DNA of 32,000 bases from an uncultured Candidatus Saccharimonas sp. (GTDB lineage: Bacteria > Patescibacteriota > Saccharimonadia > Saccharimonadales > Saccharimonadaceae): NCBI GenBank assembly GCA_963528875.1, contig CAURWT010000001.1:30001-62000 (forward strand), in the 5' to 3' direction. Shown here piece by piece: positions 1 to 32,000 of this stretch. The notes under the pieces are model-generated. The model had not been told where the DNA came from. It ran no database searches and saw only the letters and a list, made by a program, of their open reading frames with translations. Position 1 is the first letter of the stretch. Each line of letters starts with the position of its first letter. Made by a program: the position numbers and the translations under genes.

Positions 1-452
1 TTTTTGAGCTCTGGATTAATCTTGTTAAAATTCTTGTTATCATCAATATCAATTCCTTCAAGAATTTCAGCCTCCTTCTCATCGGAAGTTGGACCGCTAA
101 ATTCCGAAATTGGCAAGCTTTCGCCATCAATAACATCATCTCCTTCGACTTCTAAAATATCAATTTCTGGTACCTCTGGCTTACTTTGAAGGGTTTTCGA
201 AACTGGAATTTTTGCCGCTGCTGACATAGTCTTTAATGCAGAATTATTAGTAATAAAAACGATTTTCTTATCATTTTTTTGCGCAGCTCGAGAAAGCAAG
301 CGAATATTTACAGCACTCCTAAAAATACCCAAACTTTTCGGTGGAACAATTGCAATAATTCTCTCTTTCGAAGATTTTATTTTATTAACAACATCCGTAA
401 TATCATCTTCAACATCAACATAGATTACATCTTTTTTAACTTTTTCACTCAT
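1..452 (-). CDS. hypothetical protein, cut by the window edge (N-terminal ~150 aa visible: MSEKVKKDVIYVDVEDDITDVVNKIK...)
   Basis: ATG at 452-450 with AGAGG SD at 459-463, 12 nt after the ftsA-like stop. My reverse-strand translation stays open to position 1. Absent from the ORF track because no stop lies in the window. No tubulin/FtsZ glycine-rich signatures. Confidence 0.6.
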   Translation of the reverse strand, partial: MSEKVKKDVIYVDVEDDITDVVNKIKSSKERIIAIVPPKSLGIFRSAVNIRLLSRAAQKNDKKIVFITNNSALKTMSAAAKIPVSKTLQSKPEVPEIDILEVEGDDVIDGESLPISEFSGPTSDEKEAEILEGIDIDDNKNFNKINPELK

Positions 453-464
453 ATCTTACCTCTT

Positions 465-1724
465 TTAAGCTCGTAAAATCCTGTTTAGTTTATCACGAAA
501 ACTCTCGCTAGCATTTTCATCAGTACTGTAAGTATCATACCCGACCCGTAAAAGCCCCATTGCTGTAATAAATGTATGATCATTAATTTTTCCAGATTCG
601 TCAATAACTCCCGAAACTTCAGAAGGCTTAATATGTTTTACTATAGGCTTTTTATTGAATGGTAATTCTTGCCACCAATCATCATTTTCCAATCTTTCAA
701 CAAGAGATTCTAAGCTTGAGCCACCACCACATAGCAAAATCTTACTTGGCAGATAATCAACATTTTCAAAATCGCTTAAAGCTAGTTCAACGCCAGAAAT
801 CCAAACATCCAAAGTATTATCAATTGCATCGATTGCCTGCTTTGCAATAGTAGACTTGAGTTTCTCATTCGAAAGGTTTAGCTTTAGTTTTTCAGCGTTC
901 TTGTAAGACAATGAGAGTTCGTTCGCAATTTGATTCGTAAAACTTCGACCACCAATTCCGAACATTTTAGTTCCTTCAACACCACCATCATTCACGACAG
1001 CAATATCAGTTGTTCCACCACCGACATCAGCTAAAATTGCAGTAAAATTGCTTGAAGAGTCTGAACCAACAACACTTCTAGCAACTGCAAAAGGTTCAGC
1101 CGCTACCGCAATTAAATCAAGCGCAAGTTCATTTGCAACACGCTCAATAGCACCAATATGAACAGTTGGCGCAAAAGCTGTATAAATTTGAATTGAAACA
1201 TCTTTCCCCTGAAAACCTATTGGATTCGAAACCTTATAGCCATCAATATGAATCCCAACAATTGCTGAATTAACAAGCTTAATTTCAGCTTCTTGATTTC
1301 CCGTCTCAAGAGCAATCTCTCTTTGAGCTTTAAGCTGAGCTCTTTCTTGAATTTTATCAATAATAAATTCCATTTCAGCTTCATCAAGAGGGCGATTTGG
1401 CTGTGGACGACGATATTTAATTGTATTTGTCGCTCCTTTAACCAACTCACCAGCAATTCCAATTACGGCTTTTTTGGCTTGGATCTCCGCTTGGTCTTCA
1501 GCCTCAATCAAAGCATTCTCACAATTTTGAACAACGCTAGCAATATCAGCAATCGCACCCGAATGCATATCCGCCACACTCTGCCGTGCACGCCCAACAC
1601 CAATAACACGAATTTCATCACCATCAATTTCAGCTACAAGAGCCTTCACGAATTCAGTTCCAATATCAAGGGCAACGATATGATTATCGCTTAAATCTTC
1701 TTTTTGTTTATTCTTGAATAGCAT
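465..1724 (-). CDS. ftsA: actin-like ATPase, cell division protein FtsA-like
   Basis: 419 aa. N-terminal phosphate-1 motif IVALDIGTEFVK, ADVGGGTTDIAV, ILLCGGGS, and a C-terminal amphipathic tail SFRDKLNRILRA. The size fits FtsA better than PilM. Confidence 0.7.
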   Translation of the reverse strand: MLFKNKQKEDLSDNHIVALDIGTEFVKALVAEIDGDEIRVIGVGRARQSVADMHSGAIADIASVVQNCENALIEAEDQAEIQAKKAVIGIAGELVKGATNTIKYRRPQPNRPLDEAEMEFIIDKIQERAQLKAQREIALETGNQEAEIKLVNSAIVGIHIDGYKVSNPIGFQGKDVSIQIYTAFAPTVHIGAIERVANELALDLIAVAAEPFAVARSVVGSDSSSNFTAILADVGGGTTDIAVVNDGGVEGTKMFGIGGRSFTNQIANELSLSYKNAEKLKLNLSNEKLKSTIAKQAIDAIDNTLDVWISGVELALSDFENVDYLPSKILLCGGGSSLESLVERLENDDWWQELPFNKKPIVKHIKPSEVSGVIDESGKINDHTFITAMGLLRVGYDTYSTDENASESFRDKLNRILRA

Positions 1725-1733
1725 ACCAACACT

Positions 1734-1739
1734 ATTATA
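1734..1739 (-). promoter_or_regulatory. -10 box TATAAT, 9 nt upstream of the ftsA-like ATG (leaderless-type)
   Basis: Reverse strand reads ggtTATAATagtgttggtATG. No SD. Confidence 0.4.
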
Positions 1740-1766
1740 AACCGTTTAAGGTTTTTTTGCAAATTT

Positions 1767-2306
1767 TCACAAGATTATTTCTATGTCTTCTAATTCCAAA
1801 ATATCGCTCAAAAAAGTTTTGTTATCCAGTTCGAAAACCTCGCAGTCATACTTTTTTCGAAATTCATCAGCATTAAACCTCTCAAGAGAACCCTTTACGC
1901 CGCTTTTTCTGTCAACTCCAAAAATCCAAGATTCATTATTACCTCGTTTTTTGTATCGATTAACAAACTCACTTATATTTTTAGGATTATTCATTGGAGC
2001 AACCACGCAAAATGGCATTTTTTCTTGAGCTAAAAAATCAATAACTTTCTTATTGTTCCAAACCGCCATAATTTTATCTGGCGAATAATTTTTTACAATT
2101 TCGTTACAATAAATCTGAAGAAAATTATCTTTTCGAACTCTATCAAATCGCCCTTTTGCGTTTTCTTTGCCATATTTCCAAGCCAAATTATCAACATAAA
2201 TAATATCAGAGCTTTCCAAATCTATAAAGTCCTTATGCTTTATTGAACTTTTTCCAACGCCAGGATAGCCAACAACAATAGTTCCGCGTTTAATTTTTTG
2301 AATCAT
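1767..2306 (-). CDS. small P-loop NTPase / kinase-like protein
   Basis: 179 aa with Walker A GYPGVGKS near the N-terminus. Its start overlaps the alaS stop in an ATGA (2303-2306). TGA stop. Confidence 0.6.
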   Translation of the reverse strand: MIQKIKRGTIVVGYPGVGKSSIKHKDFIDLESSDIIYVDNLAWKYGKENAKGRFDRVRKDNFLQIYCNEIVKNYSPDKIMAVWNNKKVIDFLAQEKMPFCVVAPMNNPKNISEFVNRYKKRGNNESWIFGVDRKSGVKGSLERFNADEFRKKYDCEVFELDNKTFLSDILELEDIEIIL

Positions 2307-4186: not shown

Positions 4187-4194
4187 ATTATTTC

Positions 4195-4203
4195 ATTTTA
4201 CCA
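4195..4203 (-). promoter_or_regulatory. extended -10 TGGTAAAAT, 8 nt upstream of the alaS ATG (leaderless-type)
   Basis: Reverse strand reads tTGgTAAAATgaaataatATG. No SD. Confidence 0.45.
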
Positions 4204-4227
4204 AATTTTAACCTTTTTAGCAAATTA

Positions 4228-4256
4228 TTGATTTTTGAAATTATTTTCTGTATAAT
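4228..4256 (+). promoter_or_regulatory. sigma70-type promoter TTGATT-17-TATAAT
   Basis: -35 at 4228-4233, -10 at 4251-4256, 17-nt spacer. Lies upstream of the small ORF at 4288. Confidence 0.55.
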
Positions 4257-4287
4257 TTAAGTATTCTAATATTATCGGAGGTACATT

Positions 4288-4452: not shown

Positions 4453-4486
4453 AAAACTACCATATCTACACTTAATCATTTTCGAA

Positions 4487-4515
4487 AGTCAGTACACACT
4501 GGCTTTTTCTTTTTA
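4487..4515 (+). terminator. rho-independent terminator
   Basis: Stem AGTCAG/CTGGCT (one G-U), 6-nt loop, then TTTTTCTTTTT. Confidence 0.5.
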
Positions 4516-4525
4516 TAATAAATAA

Positions 4526-4554
4526 AACCACTCTTCAATTTTCGAAAAGTGGTT
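4526..4554 (-). terminator. rho-independent terminator for the 4576..5865 gene
   Basis: Stem AACCACT/AGTGGTT. The loop carries TTTCGAAA. A T-run follows on the minus strand. Confidence 0.55.
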
Positions 4555-4575
4555 CGATATCTTAAATACAAAATT

Positions 4576-5865
4576 CTATTGGAATGCCACCAGATATGCT
4601 ACCAATCCGGCACCAGCACCAAGCATTAGAATTGCAATTATAGCCAGCACGACACCCCAGCCAGATTTCTTTTTATGTTTAATGGGTGCAGAATATTCAT
4701 CACTCGAAAGAATCGGTGCCGACATTCTTGCTCGCCGAAGCTCCTTTGTAATAGTTGCGGCTTTTTGCTCATAGTTAGAAACCGGCTTTTTAAATTCGAA
4801 ACTTTTAGCCTGATTTTGATTTGCACCTAATGGTCTTTTTTCAATTTGCGGATTTTGTACGAAAGGTGTTTTTGGCTTTTCAATTTCATCAACAGGCTGA
4901 ATTATTACCTTTTCCAAGACTTCATTTTGTTTTGAATTTTCTTCAACTCTTTCATCAACCTCGAAAATATCTATTCTTTTATTATTTTCTTTTTCTTTGA
5001 TTTGCTCTGATTGATTTTTTTGCTCAGTCTTAACTTCAATCTTTGAAGCTTCAGTTTCAGCTTTACTATCTATATCTTTTTTGATTTTCTCAGAATTATC
5101 AAAAGCAATCGTATTGCCGCCAGTTTTTAAGCTTGAAATTTCTGGCATAACTTTTTCTGGTTTATTTTCGAGATTTAGATTTTCAAAATTCGAACTAGAA
5201 ACTTTTCGCTCTGGAATTTCAACCGTATGTTCACCGTGAAAAACTCGAAGTTTATTACTATCATCACCAATTCGATAGACACCAGCATAAAACTCCGCCC
5301 GACTTGGTGTGGTAGTTTTTTGCTCCGCAATATTAATTTCATTTTTTTGAGATTGAACTTCAGTTTCTTTTCTTGCTTGAGTTTTTTCATTTTTTGAAAC
5401 AACTTTTTTTCGAATCGGTGAATTTTCAAGCTTTTTGATATTTCGAATTGGTTTTTCGCCACCATATGTTTCTAAAATTGGGCTTTCGAAAGCAATTTTC
5501 TCTTCTCTTGCTAAAAGTGAAACGCCAAAATTGTCGCGGTGATGTTCTGGTGGAACGGGCGCACTAAAATCATCCAAAATTCGAACTCTTGGTTTTTTAT
5601 AAACAGATTTTTTCTCATTTTTTGGTTTTTCAACAACCTTTTCAATATTTCGAATTTGTGCTTTTTCGTTATTTTGATGCAATTGGCTTGCCGTCTGCGG
5701 AGCTTTTCGTGCAAAAACCATTTTTTGTTGCTCACGAGAATGTTCAATCTGGCTTTCGATTTTCGAAAAAACCTCATTATTTTTATCTTTCGAATTTGGC
5801 ACAACACCATTTTCAAGATAGCTTCCAACCGCTTTATCTAATTCTTCAAAATCTATATCTCGCAT
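4576..5865 (-). CDS. Lys/Glu-rich, C-terminally anchored membrane protein (hypothetical)
   Basis: 429 aa, low-complexity K/E/N-rich. Single C-terminal TM GWGVVLAIIAILMLGAGAGLVAYLVAF. AAGGA SD. Starts 10 nt after the tpiA stop. Confidence 0.7.
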   Translation of the reverse strand: MRDIDFEELDKAVGSYLENGVVPNSKDKNNEVFSKIESQIEHSREQQKMVFARKAPQTASQLHQNNEKAQIRNIEKVVEKPKNEKKSVYKKPRVRILDDFSAPVPPEHHRDNFGVSLLAREEKIAFESPILETYGGEKPIRNIKKLENSPIRKKVVSKNEKTQARKETEVQSQKNEINIAEQKTTTPSRAEFYAGVYRIGDDSNKLRVFHGEHTVEIPERKVSSSNFENLNLENKPEKVMPEISSLKTGGNTIAFDNSEKIKKDIDSKAETEASKIEVKTEQKNQSEQIKEKENNKRIDIFEVDERVEENSKQNEVLEKVIIQPVDEIEKPKTPFVQNPQIEKRPLGANQNQAKSFEFKKPVSNYEQKAATITKELRRARMSAPILSSDEYSAPIKHKKKSGWGVVLAIIAILMLGAGAGLVAYLVAFQ

Positions 5866-5875
5866 ATTTTTCCTT

Positions 5876-6643: not shown

Positions 6644-6652
6644 AATACTTTT

Positions 6653-6661: not shown

Positions 6662-6684
6662 TTTTATTTTATTTTTGTAAATTC

Positions 6685-8001: not shown

Positions 8002-8035
8002 TTTGTTCCTTTTTATTTTGAAAATATTTTACACA

Positions 8036-8064
8036 ATTTTAACATAAACTCATTAATTATTCAA
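8036..8064 (-). promoter_or_regulatory. sigma70-type promoter TTGAAT-17-TAAAAT for pgk
   Basis: -35 at 8059-8064, -10 at 8036-8041 (minus strand). AAGGAA SD before the ATG at 8001. Confidence 0.55.
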
Positions 8065-8174
8065 CTATTTTATTTTATAGGCTATATATTTTATATTACC
8101 AAAAAATAGCAAAACTCCGATCCAGCCATATCCAATTCTGTAAAATATATTACACCAATTTAATAATAAAACTA

Positions 8175-8203
8175 TTGACATATTAATAATTTTGTGCTAT
8201 AAT
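8175..8203 (+). promoter_or_regulatory. consensus sigma70 promoter TTGACA-17-TATAAT with TGn
   Basis: -35 at 8175-8180, -10 at 8198-8203, preceded by TGC. No annotated gene lies downstream on the + strand. Confidence 0.65.
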
Positions 8204-8364
8204 GATAACATAATCATCCAAAAAACAAAAAAATATCAAAATAAAAAATGATTATAGAAAGGAAACATTTTGTTTAAAGTTATTCGAGTAAACCAATCTG
8301 AAGAATCTTATTCAGTGAACGTTCGAACAAGTCGCGAAAAATAATTAAGACTTTCAAAAACCCA
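8204..8364 (+). other. candidate small transcript (sRNA, or carrier of a 24-codon sORF at 8270-8344)
   Basis: Bounded by the consensus promoter and the terminator at 8365-8396. ATAATCAT (8210-8217) can pair with ATGATTAT (8248-8255). TTG-start sORF MFKVIRVNQSEESYSVNVRTSREK with AAGGAAA upstream. Confidence 0.3.
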
Positions 8365-8396
8365 AAAAATCGCCCGATGTCCTTGGGGCGATTTTT
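8365..8396. terminator. bidirectional rho-independent terminator
   Basis: 11-bp stem AAAAATCGCCC/GGGCGATTTTT with a 10-nt loop. A/T runs on both sides. Serves typA (minus) and the small + strand unit. Confidence 0.75.
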
Positions 8397-8424
8397 AAAT
8401 ATTTTAGTAAATTGTCAAGCGTTG

Positions 8425-10251
8425 TTATTTAGTAGATTTCGCCATTCGTTTGCGCTCATTTGAATCCAAATAGCGTTTTCGAAGTCGCAAATTTTGCGGC
8501 GTAACTTCAAGAAGTTCATCATCTTCAATAAAATCAATACACTGTTCAAGGCTTAAATCTGTATATGGCGTTAATTGAACCGCACCATCAGAAGATTTTG
8601 AGCGCATATTTGTGAGGTGTTTTTCTTTCACAACATTAATTTCTAGGTCTTCTTGGCGATTATTTAAACCAACAATCATTCCGGCATAGACTTCAGTTCC
8701 TGGGCCGATGAATAATTCGCCACGACTTTCTGCACTTTGAAGCGCATAAGGTGTTGATACTCCTTTTTCGAAAGCTATTAATACACCATTTCGACTTGAA
8801 GGAATTTTAGTTCCCATCTCTTGATAACCATATGGCAAGCTATTCATAATAATTGTACCTTTTGTAGCGGTCAGCATTAGATTTCGAAGACCAATCATAG
8901 CACGCGTTGTAATAATATAAGTTAAGCGAGTAGCCCCTGTTGGTAGGCTTTCTTGAGCACGCATTTCAGCTCGGCGAGCCCCCATCTCTTGGCTCACCGC
9001 ACCAACAAACTCAGGTGCAACTTCAATAATTAATTCTTCAACTGGCTCTTTTTCGATACCATCTTCTTGAATTGTAACTACTTGTGGGCGACCAACTTCA
9101 AACTCAAAGCCCTCACGGCGCAAGGTTTCAATCAAAACAGAAAGGTGGAGTTCACCACGACCCGAAATAATGAAACCAATTCCGCTTTCTTCAACTTGTA
9201 GTGAAACATTTGTTTCGAGCTCTTTCTTTAGGCGATCACCAATTTGGCGTGAAGTTGTAAACTCGCCTTCACGGCCTTTCATCGGGCTGGTGTTTGGGCC
9301 AAGATACATCGAAAGGGTTGGCTTTTCAACCTCAATTGTCGGCAAAGCTTCAGGATTATTTGCATCAGCCAAAGTTTCACCAATTTCAGCTTCAGAAACA
9401 CCTGTAATCGCTACAATATCTCCAGCAAAGGCTTCTTGAATTTCCTCGCGGTTCAAACCACGATATGCAAAGAGCTTATCAATTTTAGCCTTTTTAACCG
9501 TGCCGTCTCGTTTGATTAACGCAATTTGCTCACCAGATTTCACTTTTCCGCGTGCGATTCGCCCAATCGCGTATTTTCCTAAGAAATTATCGTAAGTTAA
9601 AGAAGTTACGAGCAATTGAAAATCACCTTCAAGTTCAACTTTTGGTGCAGGAATTTCATTAATAATCGCATCAAAAATCGGCTCAAAATTTGCATCTGCT
9701 TCAGGATTTTCTGGCACTTCAGGCCATGATTTACCATCGCGCCCAATTGCATAATAAGTTGGGTACAACAATTGATCATCATTCGTAGCAAGTTCCAAAA
9801 ATAAGTCCGAAACCTCATCATTAACTTCTGTGATTCGACGAGCTGGTTTGTCAATTTTATTTACAACTACAATTGGTTTCAACCCAAGTTCAAGAGCTTT
9901 CGAGAGCACAAATTTAGTTTGAGGCATTGGGCCTTCTTGAGCATCTACCACCAAAATTACACCATCCGCCATATTCAGCGTGCGTTCAACCTCGCCAGAA
10001 AAATCGGCATGCCCCGGCGTATCAATAATATTGATTTTATAATCACCATGATAAATTGACGTCTGTTTTGCAGTAATAGTAATTCCGCGCTCCGACTCTT
10101 GATCTCCTGAGTCCATCAAAAGTGTCTGGCTCATTTCAGCCTGATTTTCACGAAAGGTATTACTCTGTTTTAAAAGACCATCCACCAAAGTGGTTTTTCC
10201 GTGGTCAACGTGAGCAATAATCGCTACATTTCGAATATTTTCTGATTTCAT
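8425..10251 (-). CDS. typA: translational GTPase TypA/BipA
   Basis: 608 aa. [21 protein letters not shown] and NKID G-motifs, and the EF-G-like domain order typical of BipA. Confidence 0.95.
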
Positions 10252-10323
10252 ATTTTCTCTCTATTAAAAATTATTATAAAACTTTAAATATTCTACCATT
10301 TTTTTCCCAAAAAATCAACCAAA

Positions 10324-10773
10324 CTATTTAGAGAAATTACTCCACCAAAGAATTTTATTCGCAATATTAAATAGCCAGTTCACTCGCCGATCATAATTTA
10401 AAATTATCAAATGCGTGTGCTGATGCTTAACAGTTTTTCGAACGTTTTGCGCTGCACGAGCATAAATTGAAAAACCCTGGGCTTCATATTTTGATAAAAT
10501 TTCAAAATATTCTTCCTTTTCTGCTGGTGAAAAATTACTAATCGTATCTGTAAATTTCTTTGGAATTAGAAGTAAATGCTTCTCAACTTCAAACCCATCC
10601 CAAATTTGATACGGAAACAAGTTTTCAACCAGTACAAAATGCTCAAATTTTTCTATAACCAAATTATCGCGTATTGCTCTGTCGTAAAAATTATAATCTT
10701 CGCCCTCATGTTTTTTATTTTTTGCATATTTTTCATATTTTTTGCCAATCCCGTTAGGCCTTCTTGTGTCCAT
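10324..10773 (-). CDS. HIT (histidine triad) family nucleotide hydrolase/transferase-like protein
   Basis: 149 aa. HxHxHxx motif HQHTHLI near the C-terminus. Confidence 0.7.
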   Translation of the reverse strand: MDTRRPNGIGKKYEKYAKNKKHEGEDYNFYDRAIRDNLVIEKFEHFVLVENLFPYQIWDGFEVEKHLLLIPKKFTDTISNFSPAEKEEYFEILSKYEAQGFSIYARAAQNVRKTVKHQHTHLIILNYDRRVNWLFNIANKILWWSNFSK

Positions 10774-10781
10774 TCTTTTTT

Positions 10782-10787
10782 ATTTTA
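10782..10787 (-). promoter_or_regulatory. -10 box TAAAAT, 8 nt upstream of the HIT-gene ATG (leaderless-type)
   Basis: Reverse strand reads ggTAAAATaaaaaagaATG. Confidence 0.3.
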
Positions 10788-10862
10788 CCTTTCGATTATA
10801 CATATTCATCTACATAATCTTAACATAACTTTAATATTTTTTCAAAAAAATGAAAAAAGTTG

Positions 10863-10891
10863 TTGACTTTACAAAAAGAGTCTGCTAAAAT
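10863..10891 (+). promoter_or_regulatory. promoter TTGACT-17-TAAAAT for tRNA-Val
   Basis: -35 at 10863-10868, -10 at 10886-10891. The tRNA starts 11 nt downstream. Confidence 0.6.
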
Positions 10892-10902
10892 GGTAATTGT
10901 TC

Positions 10903-10979
10903 GGGTGATTAGCTCAGTTGGCTAGAGCATCTCGTTTACACCGAGAGGGTCTGGGGTTCGAGTCCCTAATCACCCACCA
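10903..10979 (+). tRNA. tRNA-Val (anticodon TAC)
   Basis: 77 nt. Hand-folded cloverleaf: acceptor GGGTGAT/ATCACCC, anticodon stem TCTCG/CGAGA with loop TTTACAC, T-loop TTCGAGT, encoded CCA. Confidence 0.9.
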
Positions 10980-10994
10980 ATTGAAATTATATAG

Positions 10995-11028
10995 AAGAGC
11001 TTCAGTTTTGGAGCTTTTTTCTTTTTTT
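10995..11028 (+). terminator. rho-independent terminator after tRNA-Val
   Basis: Stem AAGAGCTTCA/TGGAGCTTTT (with G-U pairs), 4-nt loop, long T-run running into TTTCGAAA at 11026-11033. Confidence 0.6.
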
Positions 11029-11043
11029 CGAAAATTTAAATTA

Positions 11044-11072
11044 TTGACTTTTTAAGCTTTTTATGTTATTAT
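11044..11072 (+). promoter_or_regulatory. promoter TTGACT-17-TATTAT
   Basis: -35 at 11044-11049, -10 at 11067-11072. Upstream of the 11131 CDS. Confidence 0.45.
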
Positions 11073-11130
11073 ATAAGTATTCTCGCACCTTTTGATGCTG
11101 GAAAATTTTGAAAGAAAAGGAGGGTTAAAA

Positions 11131-11523
11131 ATGATTAACCTTCTCACGTACTTAGTACTATTCGTGCTAAGATTACTTAACGTAATTTCCCTAGGAGCTA
11201 TAGATAGTATAGCAACGGTTTACTCAATCTTAGTTTTTTCAACTTTTTTTGTGATTTTAAAACTTGATTCAGTAATACAGATTTGTGATTTTTGGCGAAA
11301 ATCAGGGAAATTCATCAAAGTACTATTGTTTATCGGAGTTATCCTTAACTCATTGCCCCAATGGTATTTATGGCTTGTCGGAATAATTCTGATTATTCTA
11401 GCCTATTTTATTAAACCAAAAGAGGGTAAATCTTCCCTATTCCAAAAATTAAAAAATGTTATAGTGGAAGAATTTAAAGAGGATGCAAAGCAGAAACCTA
11501 GAAAAAAATTACCTCCAGTATAG
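11131..11523 (+). CDS. multi-pass membrane protein (hypothetical)
   Basis: Start set at ATG 11131 (AAGGAGGG SD at 11117-11124) rather than the track start at 11092. About 4 hydrophobic segments and a basic C-terminal tail. Confidence 0.65.
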   Translation: MINLLTYLVLFVLRLLNVISLGAIDSIATVYSILVFSTFFVILKLDSVIQICDFWRKSGKFIKVLLFIGVILNSLPQWYLWLVGIILIILAYFIKPKEGKSSLFQKLKNVIVEEFKEDAKQKPRKKLPPV

Positions 11524-11531
11524 CCTTCGTT

Positions 11532-11569
11532 AATCGCCTTTGAAATGAGGCGATTTTTCTTTATTTTTT
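11532..11569 (+). terminator. rho-independent terminator
   Basis: Stem AATCGCCT/AGGCGATT, 8-nt loop, T-run, then TTTCGAAA at 11567-11574. Confidence 0.65.
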
Positions 11570-11617
11570 CGAAAAAGTTAAAGTGCTTGCGTTTATTTAA
11601 TATATATTATATGCTTA

Positions 11618-11646
11618 TTGACTTTTTAATAGTTTTGTGCTATAAT
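11618..11646 (+). promoter_or_regulatory. promoter TTGACT-17-TATAAT with TGn
   Basis: -35 at 11618-11623, TGC then TATAAT at 11641-11646. About 150 nt upstream of the 11798 CDS. Confidence 0.6.
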
Positions 11647-11654
11647 TCTAGCAG

Positions 11655-11752
11655 TTGACATATCATAATCAGCAGATCTGTCAATGAAGCTTAAAAATCG
11701 GGTTATTATGAGGTATGAATCGTGATACCTCTGTGTTCATTTTTATTATTTT
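11655..11752 (+). promoter_or_regulatory. structured 5' leader (two hairpins plus a T-run) of the 11798 gene
   Basis: Inverted repeat TTGACATATC (11655-11664) / GATCTGTCAA (11675-11684), 9 of 10 matching. Hairpin GAGGTAT-N8-ATACCTC (11710-11731), with a T-rich run at 11740-11752. Mini-ORF ATGAGGTATGAATCGTGA at 11708-11725. Confidence 0.35.
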
Positions 11753-11797
11753 GGCCAGAATAATAAAAAAATATATTGAAAGGAAGGTGAAATAGAA

Positions 11798-13243
11798 ATG
11801 GACACAACAAATAAGAAAATCAAAAAGACCCTTCGTCGGATAGTGGAGTATATTGACGTAAGTCAGAAAAAAGATAGGGATTGGTATAATGATGTTGAGG
11901 ATAAAGCCTCAACTTTCAAAACCAATCAAGAAAAACTAGAATATCTTGAAGGTATTCTAGATAAGTTGAAGCATAATGATGAAGCCGATAAAGCTAATAG
12001 TGGAGAAATTGTAAAGCCAAATTTTTGGTCGGCAATAGCCATCGGTGGTGGAGTGTTTCTATTCGTAATTGGTATGATGGCGTTATACTTTTTGTTTTTA
12101 GCACCAAAAAGTGCCAATGCTACAAATGGCAGTATGACTACCGCTTCTTCCACAATTTCGAAGTCTGCGGATCTTCCAAAAGAAGATTTTAAGATTATGG
12201 ATTATGTGGTTTCTTCAGGAAATGAGATTAAACCTAATCCTGACATGAAGAATGAGCAGCACAAAGTGTTTGCAAATGGCTCTTCAAACAATTCTCTTTC
12301 AGATGATAAAGATGCCGCGATAAAAGAAATGACCGACTACATGGCACACAATGTGTCGGCATTAAAAGAGAAGGCAATGGCTTTTGGAATCGTCAGTCAA
12401 AATACTGACGAAAAGAAATGGCTCGAAAAGAGAAATGGCTCTCTTTATTACAATAAAGAAGGCCAAGATATTTTCTATCAAGTCAAATCTTTCTTAAATC
12501 GCAGCAAAATCACTTCGAAAGTTATGGAACAAGGTAGTAACTATTATACTACTGGGCTAAACAAAGACAATAAAGTCGTTGTTAGCCAAAGTTCTCAGGA
12601 TCTTTCTGGGCAAAGATATTTGGAAGTTAAGAATCCTGAAGGTTCAACTGAAAAATATCACTACAATATCTTGGTTATTTGTGGGAATACTGTTATGAAA
12701 AATAACAATATTCACGGAATTCCGACAGAAAAAATCGAGATTCCTAAACCGCAAAGACCAAAAGATCCAGAAAAACCTGGTAAACCGTCAGAACCTTCAA
12801 AACCGAGCGAAAGCAAGGTCGAGAAGAAAGATCCTAGTAAGGATCCAGCTAGCCAAGGTAAAGCTTTGGTTGGCGGAGGTCAAAACGATGGATCTTCGAA
12901 TAGCGCAGAAACTTCTCAGGCAAAATTACCTGAAAGCTACTCTGCTCCATCTGCACCAGCGCAAAGCTCTTCTTCAACATCAGGTCAGACCACCCCATCA
13001 CAGGACGCTCGCGTTAGCGAACCGTCTCAATGGAGCGGCGCTGGAACAGTTACGGACTCAAACGGGTCTACAACGGTAGAAAAAAATGGAGCCGTAACCA
13101 CCCCTGATAATCGCCGCTATAGCGGCTTGGTGGGTAAATCTGCTCCTAAAGTAGAAGCTGGAGCGAATGGAGCTACGGCTCCAAACAGTTCAGCTAATTT
13201 TGCAGGCAATAGCTCTATGAGCGAGCCTGCAATTGATGACTAG
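11798..13243 (+). CDS. membrane-anchored secreted protein with a Pro/Ser/Ala-rich C-terminal tail (hypothetical)
   Basis: 481 aa. AAGGAAGGTGA SD. Cytoplasmic N-terminus, one TM (FWSAIAIGGGVFLFVIGMMALYFLFLAP), an extracellular domain, then a PKPQRPKDPEKPGKPSEPSKPSE linker and an S/A/G/T-rich tail. Confidence 0.75.
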   Translation: MDTTNKKIKKTLRRIVEYIDVSQKKDRDWYNDVEDKASTFKTNQEKLEYLEGILDKLKHNDEADKANSGEIVKPNFWSAIAIGGGVFLFVIGMMALYFLFLAPKSANATNGSMTTASSTISKSADLPKEDFKIMDYVVSSGNEIKPNPDMKNEQHKVFANGSSNNSLSDDKDAAIKEMTDYMAHNVSALKEKAMAFGIVSQNTDEKKWLEKRNGSLYYNKEGQDIFYQVKSFLNRSKITSKVMEQGSNYYTTGLNKDNKVVVSQSSQDLSGQRYLEVKNPEGSTEKYHYNILVICGNTVMKNNNIHGIPTEKIEIPKPQRPKDPEKPGKPSEPSKPSESKVEKKDPSKDPASQGKALVGGGQNDGSSNSAETSQAKLPESYSAPSAPAQSSSSTSGQTTPSQDARVSEPSQWSGAGTVTDSNGSTTVEKNGAVTTPDNRRYSGLVGKSAPKVEAGANGATAPNSSANFAGNSSMSEPAIDD

Positions 13244-18417: not shown

Positions 18418-18494
18418 TGGTACACCCGGCAGGATTTGAACCTACAACCGCCTGGTTCGAAGCCAGGTACTCTATCCAGTTGAGCTACGGGTGC
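18418..18494 (-). tRNA. tRNA-Arg (anticodon TCG)
   Basis: 77 nt. Acceptor GCACCCG/CGGGTGT (G1-U72), anticodon stem CCTGG/CCAGG with loop CTTCGAA, T-loop TTCAAAT, encoded CCA. Confidence 0.85.
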
Positions 18495-20150: not shown

Positions 20151-20183
20151 TAGCTTTTAGCTTTTCGAAATATTAAAAATTAT

Positions 20184-21455: not shown

Positions 21456-21510
21456 AAAAAACTCTCCTTAAAAATTAAACTTTTCGAAACTAAAAATATA
21501 AAACCGTCGC

Positions 21511-21540
21511 TATATCATATTTTTAAGTATATCATATTTT
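21511..21540. repeat. 13-nt direct repeat TATATCATATTTT x2 (17-nt period) in the glyA/murA divergent region
   Basis: Copies at 21511-21523 and 21528-21540. Each contains the palindrome ATATCATAT. On the minus strand each reads as a TGATATA extended -10-like box. Confidence 0.6.
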
Positions 21541-21567
21541 TAAAAAATAAAAAAATTCTTAGAAAAC

Positions 21568-21603: not shown

Positions 21604-23133
21604 ATGAACGAAGAACAAGCCTATTTAGAAAAAATCGGGAAGCTTATTCAAGAATCCCGCCTGCACAAGAATTTAACTCAAGTTGAGCTTGCTGAAAAAA
21701 TTGGTACCTCACAAAGTGCGATTAACCGCATTGAAAGCGGTAAGCAAAATATAACTATTGAAATGCTTGCAAGAATCTCAGAAGAACTTTCGAGCGAAAT
21801 TATATCTGTTAATTCAAATAAAAAGACCAATTTTCGTGTTCATGGCGGTCACGAACTTTCTGGTGAAATTGAAGTTAAAACATCAAAAAATGCCGCCGTC
21901 GCTCTACTTTGTGCTTCTCTTTTAAATAAAGGAAAAACGATTCTTCGCCGCGTTGCTAGAATTGAAGAGGTTAATCGAATTATTGAAGTTTTAAATTCGA
22001 TCGGCGTAAAAACTAAATGGCTAAATAGCGAAAACGATCTCGAAATTATAACTCCCAAAGAATTATCTTTCGAAAATATGAATGTCGAATCTGCCAAAAG
22101 AACACGTAGCATTCTAATGTTTCTCGGCCCGCTTCTTCACCAATATTCAAACTTCGAAATACCTTTTTCTGGCGGGTGCGATTTAGGAACACGCACAGTT
22201 GAGCCGCACCTCTCTGGATTAAAGTATTTTGGCGCAAACGTTACCGCGCAAACTGATTTTTACAAAGTTTCAAACAAACCAAAAAAAGTTGAGAAGCCAA
22301 TACTTTTGACCGAGCGCGGAGACACAACAACTGAAAATATAATTATGGCCGCAGCACTTTCTGGTCAAGAAATTACAATTCGAAATGCTAGCCCAAACTA
22401 TATGGTGCAAGATTTATGCTTCTTTCTTGAAGAGCTTGGCGTTAAAATTGAAGGAATTGGAACGACAACCTTAAAAGTTCATGGATTAACAAAAATTGAG
22501 AAAGATGTTGAATATTATGTAAGCGAAGATCCTATTGAATCTTTGACTTTTGTGGCGGTTGCGCTGGTTACAAATTCTGAAATCACTATCAAACGTGCGC
22601 CAATCGAATTCAACGAGCTTGAGCTCGCAACCCTCGAACAAATGGGTGCAAATTTCGAAATCAGCCCCGAATATCTTTCGAAAAATAAAAAAACGCGCCT
22701 TGTGGATATTAAAGTTAGGAAATCAAAACTGCATGCCGCGAAAGATAAAATTCACGCACTACCATTTCCTGGTATAAATATGGATAATTTGCCTTTTCTT
22801 GGATTAATCGCAACTGTCGCGGAAGGTCGAACCTTGATTCATGACTGGAGCTACGAAAACCGTGCAATTTACTTTACTGAGCTTTCAAAATTAAACGCTA
22901 AAATTGAACTTGTTGATCCACATCGTGTTTATATTTCTGGCCCAACAAAATGGAAACCTGCAGACGTTATTGCACCAAGCGCCCTTCGCCCAAGTGTTGT
23001 AGTTTTGATCGCAATGCTTGCCGCACCAGGAGTCTCAACTTTGCGAGATGTTTACAATATTAATCGCGGCTATGAAGATTTTGCAGAAAGATTAAATTCA
23101 CTCGGCGCAAAAATTGAAACTTTATTTTCATAA
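21604..23133 (+). CDS. murA: XRE-family HTH domain fused to UDP-N-acetylglucosamine 1-carboxyvinyltransferase
   Basis: 509 aa. Residues 1 to ~70 carry LTQVELAEKIGTSQSAINRIESGKQN (Cro/C1-type HTH). From ~76 on it is MurA: FRVHGG..GEIEV..SKNAA, the catalytic Cys context GGCDLGTRTVEPH, and a C-terminal INRGYEDF. Confidence 0.9.
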   Translation: MNEEQAYLEKIGKLIQESRLHKNLTQVELAEKIGTSQSAINRIESGKQNITIEMLARISEELSSEIISVNSNKKTNFRVHGGHELSGEIEVKTSKNAAVALLCASLLNKGKTILRRVARIEEVNRIIEVLNSIGVKTKWLNSENDLEIITPKELSFENMNVESAKRTRSILMFLGPLLHQYSNFEIPFSGGCDLGTRTVEPHLSGLKYFGANVTAQTDFYKVSNKPKKVEKPILLTERGDTTTENIIMAAALSGQEITIRNASPNYMVQDLCFFLEELGVKIEGIGTTTLKVHGLTKIEKDVEYYVSEDPIESLTFVAVALVTNSEITIKRAPIEFNELELATLEQMGANFEISPEYLSKNKKTRLVDIKVRKSKLHAAKDKIHALPFPGINMDNLPFLGLIATVAEGRTLIHDWSYENRAIYFTELSKLNAKIELVDPHRVYISGPTKWKPADVIAPSALRPSVVVLIAMLAAPGVSTLRDVYNINRGYEDFAERLNSLGAKIETLFS

Positions 23134-23670: not shown

Positions 23671-23748
23671 TGGGGCGAATGATGGGGTTCGAACCCACGG
23701 CCTCCGGTGCCACAAACCAGCGCTCTAACCAGCTGAGCTACATCCGCC
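23671..23748 (-). tRNA. tRNA-His (anticodon GTG) with encoded G-1
   Basis: 78 nt. An extra 5' G opposite discriminator C73, acceptor GCGGATG/CATTCGC, anticodon loop TTGTGGC, T-loop TTCGAAC, encoded CCA. Confidence 0.9.
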
Positions 23749-24275: not shown

Positions 24276-24302
24276 TAAACACGTTATTTTTTCAAAAAAG
24301 TC

Positions 24303-24331
24303 TTGCTTTTATAAAAAATGTTTGCTATAAT
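24303..24331 (+). promoter_or_regulatory. promoter TTGCTT-17-(TGc)TATAAT for tRNA-Gly
   Basis: -35 at 24303-24308, -10 at 24326-24331. The tRNA starts 8 nt downstream. Confidence 0.6.
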
Positions 24332-24339
24332 AATCTCAT

Positions 24340-24414
24340 GCGGGCGTCGTATAACGGCTAATATACCTGCCTTCCAAGCAAGTGATGAGAGTTCGATTCT
24401 CTCCGCCCGCACCA
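24340..24414 (+). tRNA. tRNA-Gly (anticodon TCC)
   Basis: 75 nt. Acceptor GCGGGCG/CGCCCGC, anticodon stem CCTGC/GCAAG (one C-A mismatch) with loop CTTCCAA, T-loop TTCGATT, encoded CCA. Confidence 0.8.
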
Positions 24415-24614: not shown

Positions 24615-25133
24615 ATGGAAATTATTTTTTACTCAATATTATTCATTCTCGGCATAATTATTGCCGCTTTTCTTTTAACTATATTTTTTGGTGCACCATA
24701 TGTCCCAACACATAAATCAGATCTTTTCAAACTCTTCGAAACAATAAATCTTTCTAAAGAAGATATACTCGTAGATATCGGTTCTGGTGATGGAGTTGTT
24801 TTAAAAGTTGCAAATAATTTTAACGCAAAAGCTATCGGTTTTGAAATTAACCCTTTTCTGGTTTTAATTTCAAAAATTAAACTTCGAAAACAACAAAACT
24901 GCCAAATTTATCTTAAAAATTTTTGGAGAGCCTTCCCAATTTCAAACATTACCATATTCTATACTTTTGGCCACGCCGAGAGGATTGAAAAAATGCTAAA
25001 ACTTGCTCAAATTCAGGCAAATTTTCAAAAAATGCCTCTACTTTTTATTAGCTATGGTTTCGAAATTAAAAACTTAAAACCTTTTAGAATATCAGGCGCA
25101 CATTATATTTATAAAATTCAGCCAAAAAAATAA
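24615..25133 (+). CDS. membrane-anchored class I SAM-dependent methyltransferase (FAM173/ATPSc-KMT-like)
   Basis: 172 aa. N-terminal TM. APYVPT, the SAM motif I LVDIGSGDG, and GFEINPFLV. Confidence 0.7.
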   Translation: MEIIFYSILFILGIIIAAFLLTIFFGAPYVPTHKSDLFKLFETINLSKEDILVDIGSGDGVVLKVANNFNAKAIGFEINPFLVLISKIKLRKQQNCQIYLKNFWRAFPISNITIFYTFGHAERIEKMLKLAQIQANFQKMPLLFISYGFEIKNLKPFRISGAHYIYKIQPKK

Positions 25134-27689: not shown

Positions 27690-28159
27690 AAGAGCCAACT
27701 CCTTTTTGTTTTAATTGGTTTAACTTCTTTTGATGGAGTATTTTTTTGCCAATTTTTAAAATCGTCCTTGATTTTTGGAATAATTTTCGGAGTCCAACCA
27801 GTTGTGAAAATTACAGCAAGAATAATCGGTAAAACCGGTGAAATTAACCACAAAATTAACATTGCTAAGCCCCAAATTGCTTTAAAGCTAATAAAAAATA
27901 TACCAATTATCATTATTATTGTTCGCAAAAAAGCACCAATAAACCGAGAAAAAAGCTTATCAAAAGACTTCTTGATTCGAACTTCAATCGAAGCGTTCGA
28001 AACACCTAAAGCATCAATTTGTCGAAAAGGTGCAAACCAAGTTTTTATTAAAAGACCGAGCGAAAAAGTATCAATCGAGTGTTCGATTCCATCTAAAATC
28101 TTCTCAGTACGCCAAGCTAGCCCTTTCCCATACCACCAAGTTAAAAAAGACATAAACAT
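27686..28159 (-). CDS. small multi-pass membrane protein, translationally coupled to the clp-like gene
   Basis: Its TGA stop overlaps the clp-like ATG in an ATGA (27686-27689). Hydrophobic segments. Start set at ATG 28159 (a -10 box 6 nt upstream) rather than GTG 28174. Confidence 0.6.
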   Translation of the reverse strand: MFMSFLTWWYGKGLAWRTEKILDGIEHSIDTFSLGLLIKTWFAPFRQIDALGVSNASIEVRIKKSFDKLFSRFIGAFLRTIIMIIGIFFISFKAIWGLAMLILWLISPVLPIILAVIFTTGWTPKIIPKIKDDFKNWQKNTPSKEVKPIKTKRSWLL

Positions 28160-28165
28160 AATTAA

Positions 28166-28194
28166 ATTATACACTAAAAAAATATTTTTCGCAA
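28166..28194 (-). promoter_or_regulatory. promoter TTGCGA-17-TATAAT, 6 nt upstream of ATG 28159 (leaderless-type)
   Basis: -10 at 28166-28171, -35 at 28189-28194 (minus strand). Divergent from the rny promoter. Confidence 0.45.
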
Positions 28195-28196
28195 TT

Positions 28197-28224
28197 TTGA
28201 AATTTACTTTTTTTATGATAAAAT
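28197..28224 (+). promoter_or_regulatory. promoter TTGAAA-16-(TGa)TAAAAT for rny
   Basis: -35 at 28197-28202, -10 at 28219-28224. AAAGGA SD before the ATG at 28283. Confidence 0.5.
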
Positions 28225-28282
28225 GGATTTAGGCATTGTATTGCTTTTGATTTTTTAACTATCTATTGATGAAAGGAAAAAT

Positions 28283-29788: not shown

Positions 29789-29806
29789 TAATTTCAAAAT
29801 TATAAT

Positions 29807-29832
29807 AAAATAGCCTTCATAAAGGCTATTTT
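29807..29832. terminator. bidirectional terminator between convergent genes
   Basis: Stem AAAATAGCCTT/AAGGCTATTTT with a 4-nt loop. Confidence 0.7.
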
Positions 29833-29835
29833 ATA

Positions 29836-31056
29836 TTATATCTTACAGTTTAATCCACTATTTTTAATTTTAGTTGTTGAGAAATCTTTACAAATCGGTT
29901 CATCTCCTTCAGTTTGAGCAGAAAATAGAGGAACCGGGAAATTACTATCATGGAATCCAATTCGACTTTCAATTCTTCTAAACTGACTATTTGCTCGACC
30001 AGTTGAATCAACTTTTGGTTGAATACCCTTAAAATCTACAACATTACCATTATTCATAAGCTCAATTTTAAATTCAGCATTATTCATTAAAGGTGTCAAT
30101 CGAGCATATAAAACATCAGTTGGAGAAACGTTTCGCCCAATATTTATTACCATTTCGCAAGCATAGGCACTTGAGCCAGCTCCAAGATCATCTGAACATT
30201 TTGTAAAAGTATAGTCATTTGTTGACTGTGCAGAATTTTCATCTCGACGAACAGTTGGTAGATTCGAACTATTCACAACTCGAGAATCCAAGCCCGAAGC
30301 AGGATATAACAGCATTTCACTCGCACCATTTCCATCATCTGGATAAGGTGTATCCATGCTTGTTGATGAATTTCCATTATGTCCAGGAACATAACCATAT
30401 AATTGGGTTTTTAATATGGCTGGTCTATTTTGAGCTTGCCAATCTTTCAGAATATTAGGGCGAGCATTAGGATTATTTATTGAATCTAATGATATTTTTG
30501 AACCATTCGCCATATTATTTTTGGTATGCCACTTAACACGAATCTGGTTAAAGCTCGAAACACCTTTTAAGTTAATAACTGAGGGCGTTCCTTCATTACT
30601 TTGACCCAAAAAGTCAGAAGTATCTGTTTTAATTTTAACACAAGTATAGGCTTGGTTTAAATTTTGATCAGTATTTCCTCCACCAGAACTTGTTTTAGTT
30701 TGCACTATAGTTTCATTACCATTAGCGCCAATTCCAGCAGTCGCTAAAATATAACAGTTACCAGACAAAATTGCCTTTGTCATTTCACTACAATCATATG
30801 TCTTACCTTCGAAAACTTTCTTACCAACATCTGCGCCACCGCAGGCACCTTTATAAATTCGTAAAAATCTTTTAGCATCTTCAACTCCCGCCTGAGCACT
30901 ATCATAAGCACTCTGTGAAAGATCTAGCCTACTGGCCTGCTCTTGGTCTCGGAGCATAATCCGCAAAAAGCTTGCAGACATAATCGAGACCAAAATACTA
31001 ACCATAATAACAATAAAGATTGAAACACCACCTTTTTTAAACTCTCTATTTGTCAT
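29836..31056 (-). CDS. PilX-like type IV pilus minor pilin / pilus-associated protein
   Basis: 406 aa. N-terminus KKGGVSIFIVIMVSILVSIMSASFLRIM followed by QEQASRLDLSQSAYDSAQAGVEDA, which matches the PilX N-terminal pattern (from memory). Several Cys in the globular part. Confidence 0.6.
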   Translation of the reverse strand: MTNREFKKGGVSIFIVIMVSILVSIMSASFLRIMLRDQEQASRLDLSQSAYDSAQAGVEDAKRFLRIYKGACGGADVGKKVFEGKTYDCSEMTKAILSGNCYILATAGIGANGNETIVQTKTSSGGGNTDQNLNQAYTCVKIKTDTSDFLGQSNEGTPSVINLKGVSSFNQIRVKWHTKNNMANGSKISLDSINNPNARPNILKDWQAQNRPAILKTQLYGYVPGHNGNSSTSMDTPYPDDGNGASEMLLYPASGLDSRVVNSSNLPTVRRDENSAQSTNDYTFTKCSDDLGAGSSAYACEMVINIGRNVSPTDVLYARLTPLMNNAEFKIELMNNGNVVDFKGIQPKVDSTGRANSQFRRIESRIGFHDSNFPVPLFSAQTEGDEPICKDFSTTKIKNSGLNCKI

Positions 31057-31058
31057 AT

Positions 31059-32000
31059 TTAATACCTCACCGGAAGTTCTTTAGTATAAGTTGTAACAAT
31101 TTTGCCCGCACTACCAGATTGAGACTGAGCCCACAAGTAGGTATCTGCCGATTGGTTAAAAATTTCAGCAGGATTAGCTAGCGTATCTTTCGCAGTCCCA
31201 TCAGAGCCAGCAGTTCGCCACAATCGCAACTCTTTCGAAACTGTTCCACCACGCACATGCAATTGATTGTCACAATTTTTCATATTAACATCATTAGCAT
31301 TCTGGGCACCATTAACCGCACAAGTATTTATTATACCTTGAGCAATCAACCACGCATCAACTCTTTTCACTCCTTGGTCAATAGTAATATCTCCATCAGC
31401 AATAATTATGATCTGACGGAAATCTGAATCATTATTTACAGCTCTATCAACATTCACAATATCACCAGAAATTCGAATATTTTTACCATAGATCACTCGA
31501 GTTTGTTTATCAGCCGAAATCGAACCAAGCTGTTTGTTCGCATCGCCATAAACTTCAACTTTTGTATTTGTATCTTCGAAATTCTTTTTTGGAAATTTTG
31601 AAGCAATGTTTGAAATTAATGAATCAATACTTGACTTCCCTTGGCCAAAACTACTTTTTGAAGAATAATCCTCAATTGCCAACTTTCGCGTACTTTGCGA
31701 AGATTCAGTTCTAAAATCTTTAATTTTCACACCCGAGAGCGCTTCATATTCGACCCAAGAACCAAGAACTCCTTGTTTAGTTGTAGATAAACTCGTTCGA
31801 ATACCAGATTTTGAATAGACACCATTTCCCCAGAATTGAACTTTTGGTTTCTTAACCAGCTTAATACAAATTGGTGCACCGTGCCGCCAGTCTAAATTTT
31901 CTCGTTCTTGTTTAGCTTGCTCAGCCTGACTTTGGTTCGAATTCATCTTGTATGGCGAGATGGAAAGCGCAACACAATAACGGGTTCCCGCCTCGGCACC
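31059..32000 (-). CDS. secreted or pilus-associated hypothetical protein, 5' end probably beyond the window
   Basis: Its stop lies 2 nt before the PilX-like start. The reading frame stays open upstream of the track's ATG (31946) all the way to position 32000. Confidence 0.55.
   Translation of the reverse strand, partial: GAEAGTRYCVALSISPYKMNSNQSQAEQAKQERENLDWRHGAPICIKLVKKPKVQFWGNGVYSKSGIRTSLSTTKQGVLGSWVEYEALSGVKIKDFRTESSQSTRKLAIEDYSSKSSFGQGKSSIDSLISNIASKFPKKNFEDTNTKVEVYGDANKQLGSISADKQTRVIYGKNIRISGDIVNVDRAVNNDSDFRQIIIIADGDITIDQGVKRVDAWLIAQGIINTCAVNGAQNANDVNMKNCDNQLHVRGGTVSKELRLWRTAGSDGTAKDTLANPAEIFNQSADTYLWAQSQSGSAGKIVTTYTKELPVRY

Follow-up and report, generated by a model that had tools for sequence, protein, structure and literature searches.

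In a 32,000-bp stretch of the genome of an uncultured Candidatus Saccharimonas sp. (GenBank assembly GCA_963528875.1, contig CAURWT010000001.1, positions 30,001 to 62,000; called the window here, with positions counted from its first base), the palindrome TTCGAA and its extended form TTTCGAAA are present in far higher numbers than expected. Our analysis establishes that a DNA-level, sequence-specific and lineage-specific force acts on this 6-8-bp palindrome. It is a system resembling the highly iterated palindromes (HIP) of cyanobacteria, with an AT-rich hexamer or octamer, in a different phylum and with a lower fold-excess.

The window (GC content 35.65%) contains, by exact count, 101 copies of TTCGAA and 34 copies of TTTCGAAA, compared to zero-order expectations of 10.7 and 1.1, respectively. 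One hundred dinucleotide-preserving shuffles gave 22.2±4.5 copies of TTCGAA (maximum 34) and 4.06±1.85 copies of TTTCGAAA (maximum 9), and none of them reached the observed values. The hexamer is 9.4 times as frequent as the zero-order model predicts and 4.6 times as frequent as the dinucleotide model does; for the octamer these factors are 31 and 8.4. The densities are 3156 TTCGAA per Mb (about one per 320 bases) and 1062 octamers per Mb (1.06 per kb). TTCGAA ranked first by z-score among all 4096 hexamers as well as among the 64 palindromic ones, the remaining of which did not exceed about 3 times their expectation. The initial annotation had counted about 100 and about 33 copies by hand at about 36% GC, with expectations of 11 and 1; these figures were borne out, and all positions quoted in it (13732, 13760, 13947 and six non-coding octamers) are right. 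As a correction to it, sites 196 and 367 belong to a gene that is cut by the left window end.

The copies are evenly distributed, with 3-11 copies of TTCGAA per 2 kb and at least one copy in 24 of the 25 open reading frames (ORFs). Ninety-two are situated in protein-coding sequence, seven in intergenic DNA and two in tRNA genes. Outside the window the enrichment persists as well: it extends 9.5 kb past the left end (24-26 copies vs 6-7 expected) and is found in many related genomes (see below). CGATCG was found twice (3.8 expected in the dinucleotide model), so that the signal is not HIP1 proper. The zero-order and dinucleotide nulls are far exceeded. Markov models of order 4 and above nearly match the counts (92 expected vs 101 observed for TTCGAA; 35 vs 34 for TTTCGAAA with orders 4-6). 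We rejected orders 4-6 as a null because 101 of the 135 TTCGA pentamers (75%) are already part of TTCGAA, which makes the comparison circular.

As competitor to a process acting on DNA, the initial annotation named strong usage of CGA-Arg, TCG-Ser and Phe-Glu, of which the excess would be a by-product, a possibility considered here for codons, codon pairs and dipeptides. Among the Arg codons of the window CGA is the most frequent (135 of 405), and the window also encodes a tRNA-Arg(UCG). When synonymous codons were shuffled within each of the 25 ORFs, preserving both proteins and codon usage, 31.9±4.7 copies of TTCGAA and 5.8 copies of TTTCGAAA were expected in genes, compared to 90 (z = 12.4) and 27 observed. 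Furthermore, CGA is favoured only in the context of the motif: it makes up 29 of 36 Arg codons (81%) in TT_A context but 47 of 225 (21%) where neither flank matches, indicating that the CGA preference is a consequence of the motif and not its cause. Intergenic DNA is equally enriched, and all three frames are used, with 25, 29 and 36 copies in codon phases 0, 1 and 2, respectively. Codon usage thus does not account for the TTCGAA excess, and it is codon choice that is bent by the motif. The codon explanation is excluded by these tests and highly improbable, and the process at the DNA level is supported. Where the protein permits TTCGAA synonymously, 90 of 220 positions (41%) are occupied vs about 27 expected from codon usage; occupancy is partial (33-50%).

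The motif has also shifted peptide content. The dipeptide Phe-Glu was found 50 times vs 30.7 expected (z = 3.7) and [FLIV]-Arg-[IMTNKSR] 61 times vs 46 (z = 2.5), while Glu-Phe and the other reversed peptides were at expectation. The following genes illustrate the coding copies, the first of them confirming that all three phases occur within a single gene:

13732 to 13952, plus strand: phase example in the surface-protein gene ending at 15695, with xTT-CGA-Axx at 13732 (phase 1), xxT-TCG-AAx at 13760 (phase 2) and TTC-GAA at 13947 (phase 0).
4576 to 5865, minus strand: densest gene, encoding a protein of unknown function, with 9 copies (7 per kb).
22653 to 22683: two octamers 23 bp apart within murA.

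Intergenic DNA was analysed separately, using a strict set from which the ORFs, the partial gene at the left end and six tRNA genes had been removed (2884 bp, 24.8% GC). The enrichment is present there, too: TTCGAA was found 7 times vs 1.67 expected (about 4-fold) and TTTCGAAA 6 times vs 0.37 expected (about 16-fold, Poisson P about 3e-6). Six of the seven intergenic TTCGAA copies are the octamer, which is the usual form where coding leaves the flanks unconstrained. The intergenic copies are:

4480 to 4487: octamer TTTCGAAA, directly preceding a terminator-like hairpin (4484-4507).
4540 to 4547: octamer within a minus-strand hairpin resembling a terminator (4525-4555), 30 nt beyond the stop codon of 4576-5865.
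8322 to 8327: the sole intergenic bare hexamer (GTTCGAAC).
11026 to 11033: octamer directly after a terminator T-tract, downstream of tRNA-Val.
11567 to 11574: octamer directly after a terminator T-tract (hairpin 11532-11555).
20163 to 20170: octamer in the 51-nt spacer from glyA to the downstream glycosyltransferase gene.
21482 to 21489: octamer in the divergent glyA / murA promoter region.

That some intergenic copies sit on or just after terminator T-tracts, as described initially, holds for the sites at 4481, 11027 and 11568; the one at 4541 lies inside a terminator-like hairpin. Since a single mutation separates T-runs followed by A-runs from the motif, no functional account of this placement is required, and we found no sign of function in the placement next to terminators among the intergenic copies of the window.

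The two copies in tRNA genes are structural and outside the phenomenon:

18456 to 18461, minus strand: TTCGAA forming the anticodon loop (U33, UCG, A37, A38) of tRNA-Arg(UCG), gene 18418-18494; kept in all relatives, including the non-enriched ones.
23688 to 23693, minus strand: TTCGAA in the T-loop of tRNA-His, gene 23671-23747; retained in non-enriched relatives as well.

CGA, the codon that TTCGAA favours, is read by the dedicated tRNA-Arg(UCG).

An alignment of all 101 copies carried information only at positions -1 (T in 60%) and +1 (A in 59%), the two preferences being independent of each other, and positions beyond ±1 were random. The two halves of the palindrome are coupled: AA follows TTCG with a frequency of 0.43 vs 0.14 after other CG contexts (odds ratio 4.7, p = 9e-21). 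In two of the related lineages introduced below, L013 and L017, the odds ratio was 4.0, and the coupling was not significant in L020 or in Nanosynbacter. Variants at position 2 (TNCGAA) are depleted to 0.33-0.70 of expectation. Taken together, coupled halves and position-2 depletion indicate that the selected unit is the palindrome in its entirety, which is what a protein reading DNA symmetrically would lead one to expect. The high copy number would also suit the core of a dispersed mobile element or of a repeat resembling repetitive extragenic palindromes (REP) or miniature inverted-repeat transposable elements (MITE). This is excluded by the finding that nothing is conserved beyond ±1 in 101 copies; moreover, 92 copies sit within ordinary conserved genes instead of mostly between genes, and the output of a tandem-repeat finder held nothing related to TTCGAA. 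We therefore regard such a repeat as practically out of the question.

For the comparison with related genomes 80 homologous loci were used, whose lineages are labelled L0xx. The translational GTPase TypA encoded in the window shares 95-99% identity with proteins from metagenome-assembled genomes of Saccharibacteria (TM7) that carry the label Nanogingivalaceae or Ca. Saccharimonas, and 89% with that of Ca. Nanogingivalis gingivitcus (clade G6, human oral). By these protein identities the window is assigned to the clade G6 Saccharibacteria (Nanogingivalaceae). The enrichment was replicated in independent lineages and was absent in control lineages. Within G6 it characterises several lineages and is lacking in Ca. 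N. gingivitcus and two further relatives. About 3 TTCGAA per kb were found in the window's own group (92-95% nucleotide identity), L018, L013 and L016/L025/L015, and the deeper-branching lineages L017 (44% GC) and L065 (41% GC) are enriched as well, with 4.7 and 3.5 copies per kb. L019 exhibits a weaker enrichment. No enrichment was observed in L020 (Ca. N. gingivitcus, 0.23 per kb), L021, L022, Nanosynbacter and other Saccharimonadia. In six enriched lineages with GC contents of 35-44% the codon-aware observed/expected ratio was 2.4-2.9 (z = 7-12.6), compared to 0.4-0.9 in L020, L021, L058 (Nanosynbacter) and L030. Intergenic DNA of the semi-independent lineages L013, L016, L017 and L065 contained 7-11 copies vs 1-1.7 expected. 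An apparent avoidance of TTCGAA in Nanosynbacter (110 vs 319 in the dinucleotide null) was rejected, as it was gone under the codon-aware null (4 vs 4.6). The trait belongs to the lineage and not to the genes, and sister lineages contrast sharply (L065 vs L019; L017 vs L008-L010).

In the same comparison we noticed deficits of other palindromes resembling footprints of restriction-modification, CCGG in L017 (9 vs 58) and ACGT in L065 (11 vs 57). The pooled Nanosynbacter loci exhibited a deficit of GGGCCC (1 vs 38 expected) and an excess of GCTAGC (269 vs 101).

L008-L010 are mosaics with respect to the motif. Their typA and alaS segments are 87-92% identical to the window at nucleotide level and contain 1.6-2.3 TTCGAA per kb (positions 9475-12035 and 16877-18778 in L008; likewise in L009 and L010), while in the adjacent genes pgk, tpi and ftsA the identity drops to 65-74%, and the remainder of these loci has about 0.8 TTCGAA per kb. 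These identities show an apparent import of motif-rich DNA by homologous recombination into a lineage not generating the motif itself. The mosaics thus indicate that the enrichment is a property of the molecular regime of a lineage, not of particular genes, and also that DNA has been exchanged recently across species of Nanogingivalaceae. Protein trees of different genes disagree with each other, which is in line with recombination, and an exchange across species fits the natural competence shown experimentally for other Saccharibacteria.

At the positions of TTCGAA, relatives mainly have TTTGAA or TTCAAA, that is CpG-to-TpG/CpA transitions which are synonymous in phases 0 and 2; TTAGAA and TTCTAA, reflecting synonymous CGA/AGA exchange, are further alternative states. 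TTTGAA (8 of 16 gain sites) and TTCAAA (6 of 16) were also the inferred sources of new sites. Polarised counts gave 16 gain and 10 loss sites, of which we used only the source spectrum, since ascertainment favours gains for all control words. Turnover of TTCGAA hence proceeds mainly via CpG-to-TpG/CpA transitions. Nevertheless, the motif persists at its positions above same-composition permutations: conservation was 0.56 vs 0.37 in L013, 0.41 vs 0.18 in L017 and 0.57 vs 0.18 in L065 (p = 7e-6). This excess over the control words increases with distance and was not seen in the non-enriched L008 and L020. CGA is better conserved inside sites than outside in close relatives. Among positions permissive in both genomes, L065 has the motif at 16 of the 18 occupied in the window vs 8 of the 20 empty there (p = 0.0025), which suggests that individual sites are retained between the two.

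The comparison to HIP1 drawn in the initial annotation fits what we found: a palindrome restricted to certain lineages, genic as well as intergenic, and conserved above composition-matched control words. Like HIP1 (GCGATCGC; Robinson 1995) and the alternative HIPs (GGCGCC, GCSGC, RCCGGY), TTCGAA is a short restriction-type palindrome with about 1000-3000 copies per Mb. As in cyanobacteria, it is found in all coding frames and in non-coding DNA, is restricted to lineages with exceptions among close relatives, has a palindromic outer extension, and resides in a naturally transformable host. Unlike HIP1 it is AT-rich and has a hexamer instead of an octamer as its core, and the octamer excess of 31-fold (zero-order) or 8-fold (dinucleotide) is lower than the 15-300-fold of HIP1. 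The host is a roughly 0.65-Mb epibiotic Patescibacterium and not a cyanobacterium. In cyanobacteria every alternative HIP co-occurs with a cognate, usually solitary, methyltransferase, and HIP sites have been proposed to be created by methyl-directed repair (Elhai 2015, PMC4390886); here a cognate methyltransferase is a prediction. Xu et al. (2018, PMC5861425) argued that HIP1 is under selection and contributes to the structure of the chromosome, and methylated HIP1 raises natural transformation up to 100-fold (bioRxiv 10.1101/2024.09.10.611283). Methylation of TTCGAA to N6-methyladenine (m6A) has been detected in environmental genomes (bioRxiv 10.64898/2026.06.24.734251).

On this basis we tentatively favour, at a little below even confidence, that TTCGAA, together with a weaker outer layer (tTTCGAAa), belongs to the HIP1 kind of palindromes, is specific to certain lineages and is the target of an enzyme reading TTCGAA, most plausibly a solitary methyltransferase. 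A force on double-stranded DNA would keep TTCGAA abundant throughout the genome in a sub-clade of G6. The data show that the motif accumulates where this is cheap, namely at synonymous positions in three frames and in intergenic DNA with T-tracts and A-tracts. The enriched lineages would encode a protein reading TTCGAA symmetrically, for which a solitary (orphan) Type II DNA methyltransferase with BstBI/AsuII/NspV specificity is the candidate. Methylated copies may be useful, for instance by marking DNA as self and thereby aiding its processing or recombination when it enters a naturally competent organism, or by marking a strand for repair. A second possibility is that a repair bias coupled to methylation converts the near-cognate TTTGAA and TTCAAA into TTCGAA. 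The patchy distribution among lineages suits a dispensable gene as the cause.

Several observations weigh against this proposal. No gene for a DNA methyltransferase, a restriction enzyme or a Vsr-type or MutH-type protein was detected in the window, its 10-kb extension or any G6 locus; the DNA covered by this search amounts to about 50 kb, about 7-8% of the genome. Scans of all 25 ORFs of the window against NCBIfam and Pfam gave no cognate methyltransferase, nuclease or Vsr, and the 10-kb left extension encodes RuvX, YceG, Obg, ExoI and RarA and no relevant gene. Methyltransferase motifs ([DNS]PP[YFW]; PCQ with ENV), searched in 84 loci, were absent from G6, and the matches were confined to Nanosynbacter and other non-G6 loci (RsmD-like and similar proteins). 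Depletion of the near-cognates TTTGAA and TTCAAA, the classical footprint of very-short-patch repair, is weak in the window, 0.81-0.95 of expectation; their combined value of 0.63-0.79 in L017 and L065 is similar to the 0.60-0.83 in the non-enriched L020 and L058. In close relatives synonymous TTC and TCG are conserved equally inside and outside of sites, indicating a high turnover and that any force per site is weak. The persistence of sites at high divergence may furthermore stem in part from synonymous sites that are not saturated.

A 172-aa protein annotated as S-adenosylmethionine methyltransferase (24615-25133, plus strand) was rejected as DNA methyltransferase, being too small and having an N-terminal membrane helix. 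It has only weak Pfam matches (RrnaAD, DOT1 and N6_N4_Mtase at E = 0.005).

The Type II systems BstBI, AsuII and NspV have TTCGAA as their identical recognition sequence. Genomes carrying a cognate nuclease normally avoid its site. Unlike in such genomes, TTCGAA is the most over-represented hexamer of the window and about 650 times denser than in Microcystis with one TTCGAA per 209 kb (PMC2779907), which argues against an active nuclease partner.

The excess could also result from a purely mutational or repair bias without a dedicated reader. Polymerase errors dependent on context, or the preference of a mismatch glycosylase, would favour T-to-C changes in TTTGAA and TTCAAA or protect CpG inside TTCGAA, in which case the motif would be functionless. 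TTTGAA and TTCAAA are indeed the main alternative states and sources, turnover is high with equal conservation of TTC and TCG inside and outside of sites, and occupancy is only partial. Half-site coupling and position-2 depletion, however, call for recognition of six base pairs, and neither the sharp contrasts between sister lineages nor the persistence of positions above control words is in favour of a bias of this kind, which we consider quite unlikely. A partly similar case is Dcm/Vsr very-short-patch repair of E. coli (excess of CCWGG, deficit of CTWGG/CCWAG), where the target of a methyltransferase becomes over-represented by exchange with its C-to-T deamination products; for TTCGAA these products would be TTTGAA and TTCAAA, its main alternative states. 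Within Phe-Glu codon pairs, by arithmetic on codon counts, TTTGAA was found 17 times vs about 29 expected from codon usage. Unlike Dcm/Vsr, the excess is much larger, the depletion of the deamination products is weak, and neither Vsr nor a C5-methyltransferase was found in the approximately 50 kb examined; moreover, m6A, the form of TTCGAA methylation reported elsewhere, does not give rise to a mismatch by deamination.

The motif shares several features with the DNA uptake sequences (DUS) of Neisseria and the uptake signal sequences (USS) of Pasteurellaceae. It lies in all frames and between genes near terminators, and it distorts peptide composition in a competent, recombining lineage; its octamer density of 1.06 per kb matches the usual densities of DUS and USS. 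Saccharibacteria are naturally competent, as shown experimentally (PMC10633639), and the mosaics described above are direct evidence of interspecies recombination in Nanogingivalaceae. The extended motif tTTCGAAa might serve as a signal for DNA uptake or self-recognition, preferred by type IV pili or by ComEA-ComEC and spread by molecular drive as favoured DNA is taken up and then recombined, which would require no methylation. Known uptake signals, however, are non-palindromic 9-12-mers, far more specific and with an extended flank, whereas TTCGAA is a perfect palindrome without information beyond ±1, and a 6-8-mer enriched 5-30-fold discriminates poorly. The recipient L008-L010 took in motif-rich DNA and yet is not enriched itself, competence was demonstrated only for G1-type Saccharibacteria, and no pilin or receptor is implicated (two proteins at 29836-31946 are without Pfam match). 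An uptake signal of this type is, in our opinion, unlikely. Rather unlikely, too, but worth stating is a more specific version of the methylation proposal, in which tTTCGAAa, probably in methylated form, would be a self-DNA tag in competent, nucleotide-scavenging G6 organisms, used for uptake, processing or recombination.

Another candidate for the reader is an abundant nucleoid-associated or chromosome-organising protein. A palindrome suits a dimeric binding protein, conservation is above that of control words, and the copies are spaced slightly more evenly than random (coefficient of variation 0.82 vs 0.98±0.10, P = 0.026). A role of this kind has been proposed for HIP1 by Xu, Lawrence and Durand (PMC5861425). 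The evenness signal is weak, though, no candidate protein is known, and a 32-kb window is too short for the 10-90 kb periodicity reported for HIP1. We judge this explanation distinctly improbable.

Some further features of the window were noted. MurA (UDP-GlcNAc enolpyruvyl transferase; 21604-23133, plus strand) has an N-terminal XRE-type HTH_3 domain (residues about 10-64), which is an unusual fusion. In the typA-pgk interval, L081-L084 carry a gene for a 405-aa major facilitator superfamily transporter (2948-4165 in L081), where the window has only a 424-bp spacer (8002-8424). A 179-aa P-loop ORF without family match (1767-2306, minus strand) occurs in the window, in L082 and in L084 and is lacking at the corresponding place in L081 and L083. 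Two adjacent proteins of 406 and 295 aa without Pfam match are encoded at 29836-31946 (minus strand); the N-terminus of the larger is hydrophobic and bears a loose resemblance to that of a minor pilin, and the two may be the pilus genes mentioned in the initial annotation. A PilM-like match at 465-1724 is FtsA. CCACCA was found 32 times on the plus strand vs about 4 expected and its complement TGGTGG 6 times, with 6425 C vs 4983 G; in our reading this skew is an ordinary strand asymmetry, due to GGT/TGG-rich Gly and Trp codons of the mostly minus-strand genes. Two short tandem duplications were detected, one between glyA and murA (21511-21543; 17 bp, 1.9 copies) and one in the non-coding DNA that immediately precedes the tRNA-Gly gene at 24340 (24294-24333; 19 bp, 2.0 copies).

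Full-text literature searches gave no report of an over-representation of TTCGAA or TTTCGAAA in any bacterium. Methylation, restriction and palindromes are unmentioned in the G6 genome papers, and searches for methylomes of Saccharibacteria gave no prior description. To our knowledge, there are no cultures of G6 Saccharibacteria.

For nearly 30 years no mechanism or function of HIP1 has gained general agreement, and the well-studied cases are all cyanobacterial. The motif described here is an independent, strong example of the HIP type with a different sequence, in a bacterium whose gene set ranks among the smallest known and whose phylum is naturally competent. The enriched and non-enriched sisters are natural controls, including one lineage apparently receiving motif-rich DNA by recombination, and their contrasts narrow the hunt for the gene behind the motif to a small comparison of gene presence and absence. 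Selection and biased repair could be told apart with population data from oral metagenomes that already exist. In practical terms, TTCGAA density is a simple binning marker for the G6 sub-clade, and digestion with BstBI or TaqI could enrich or deplete G6 DNA in samples. Any methylation of the roughly 2000 sites in each genome would be relevant to future genetic manipulation. Should the motif indeed be a self-DNA tag, it would be a palindrome with a function analogous to that of DUS/USS and of methylated HIP1, the first signal of this sort in the candidate phyla radiation, and these organisms would offer a minimal-genome system of about 650 genes for finding the long-sought HIP machinery.

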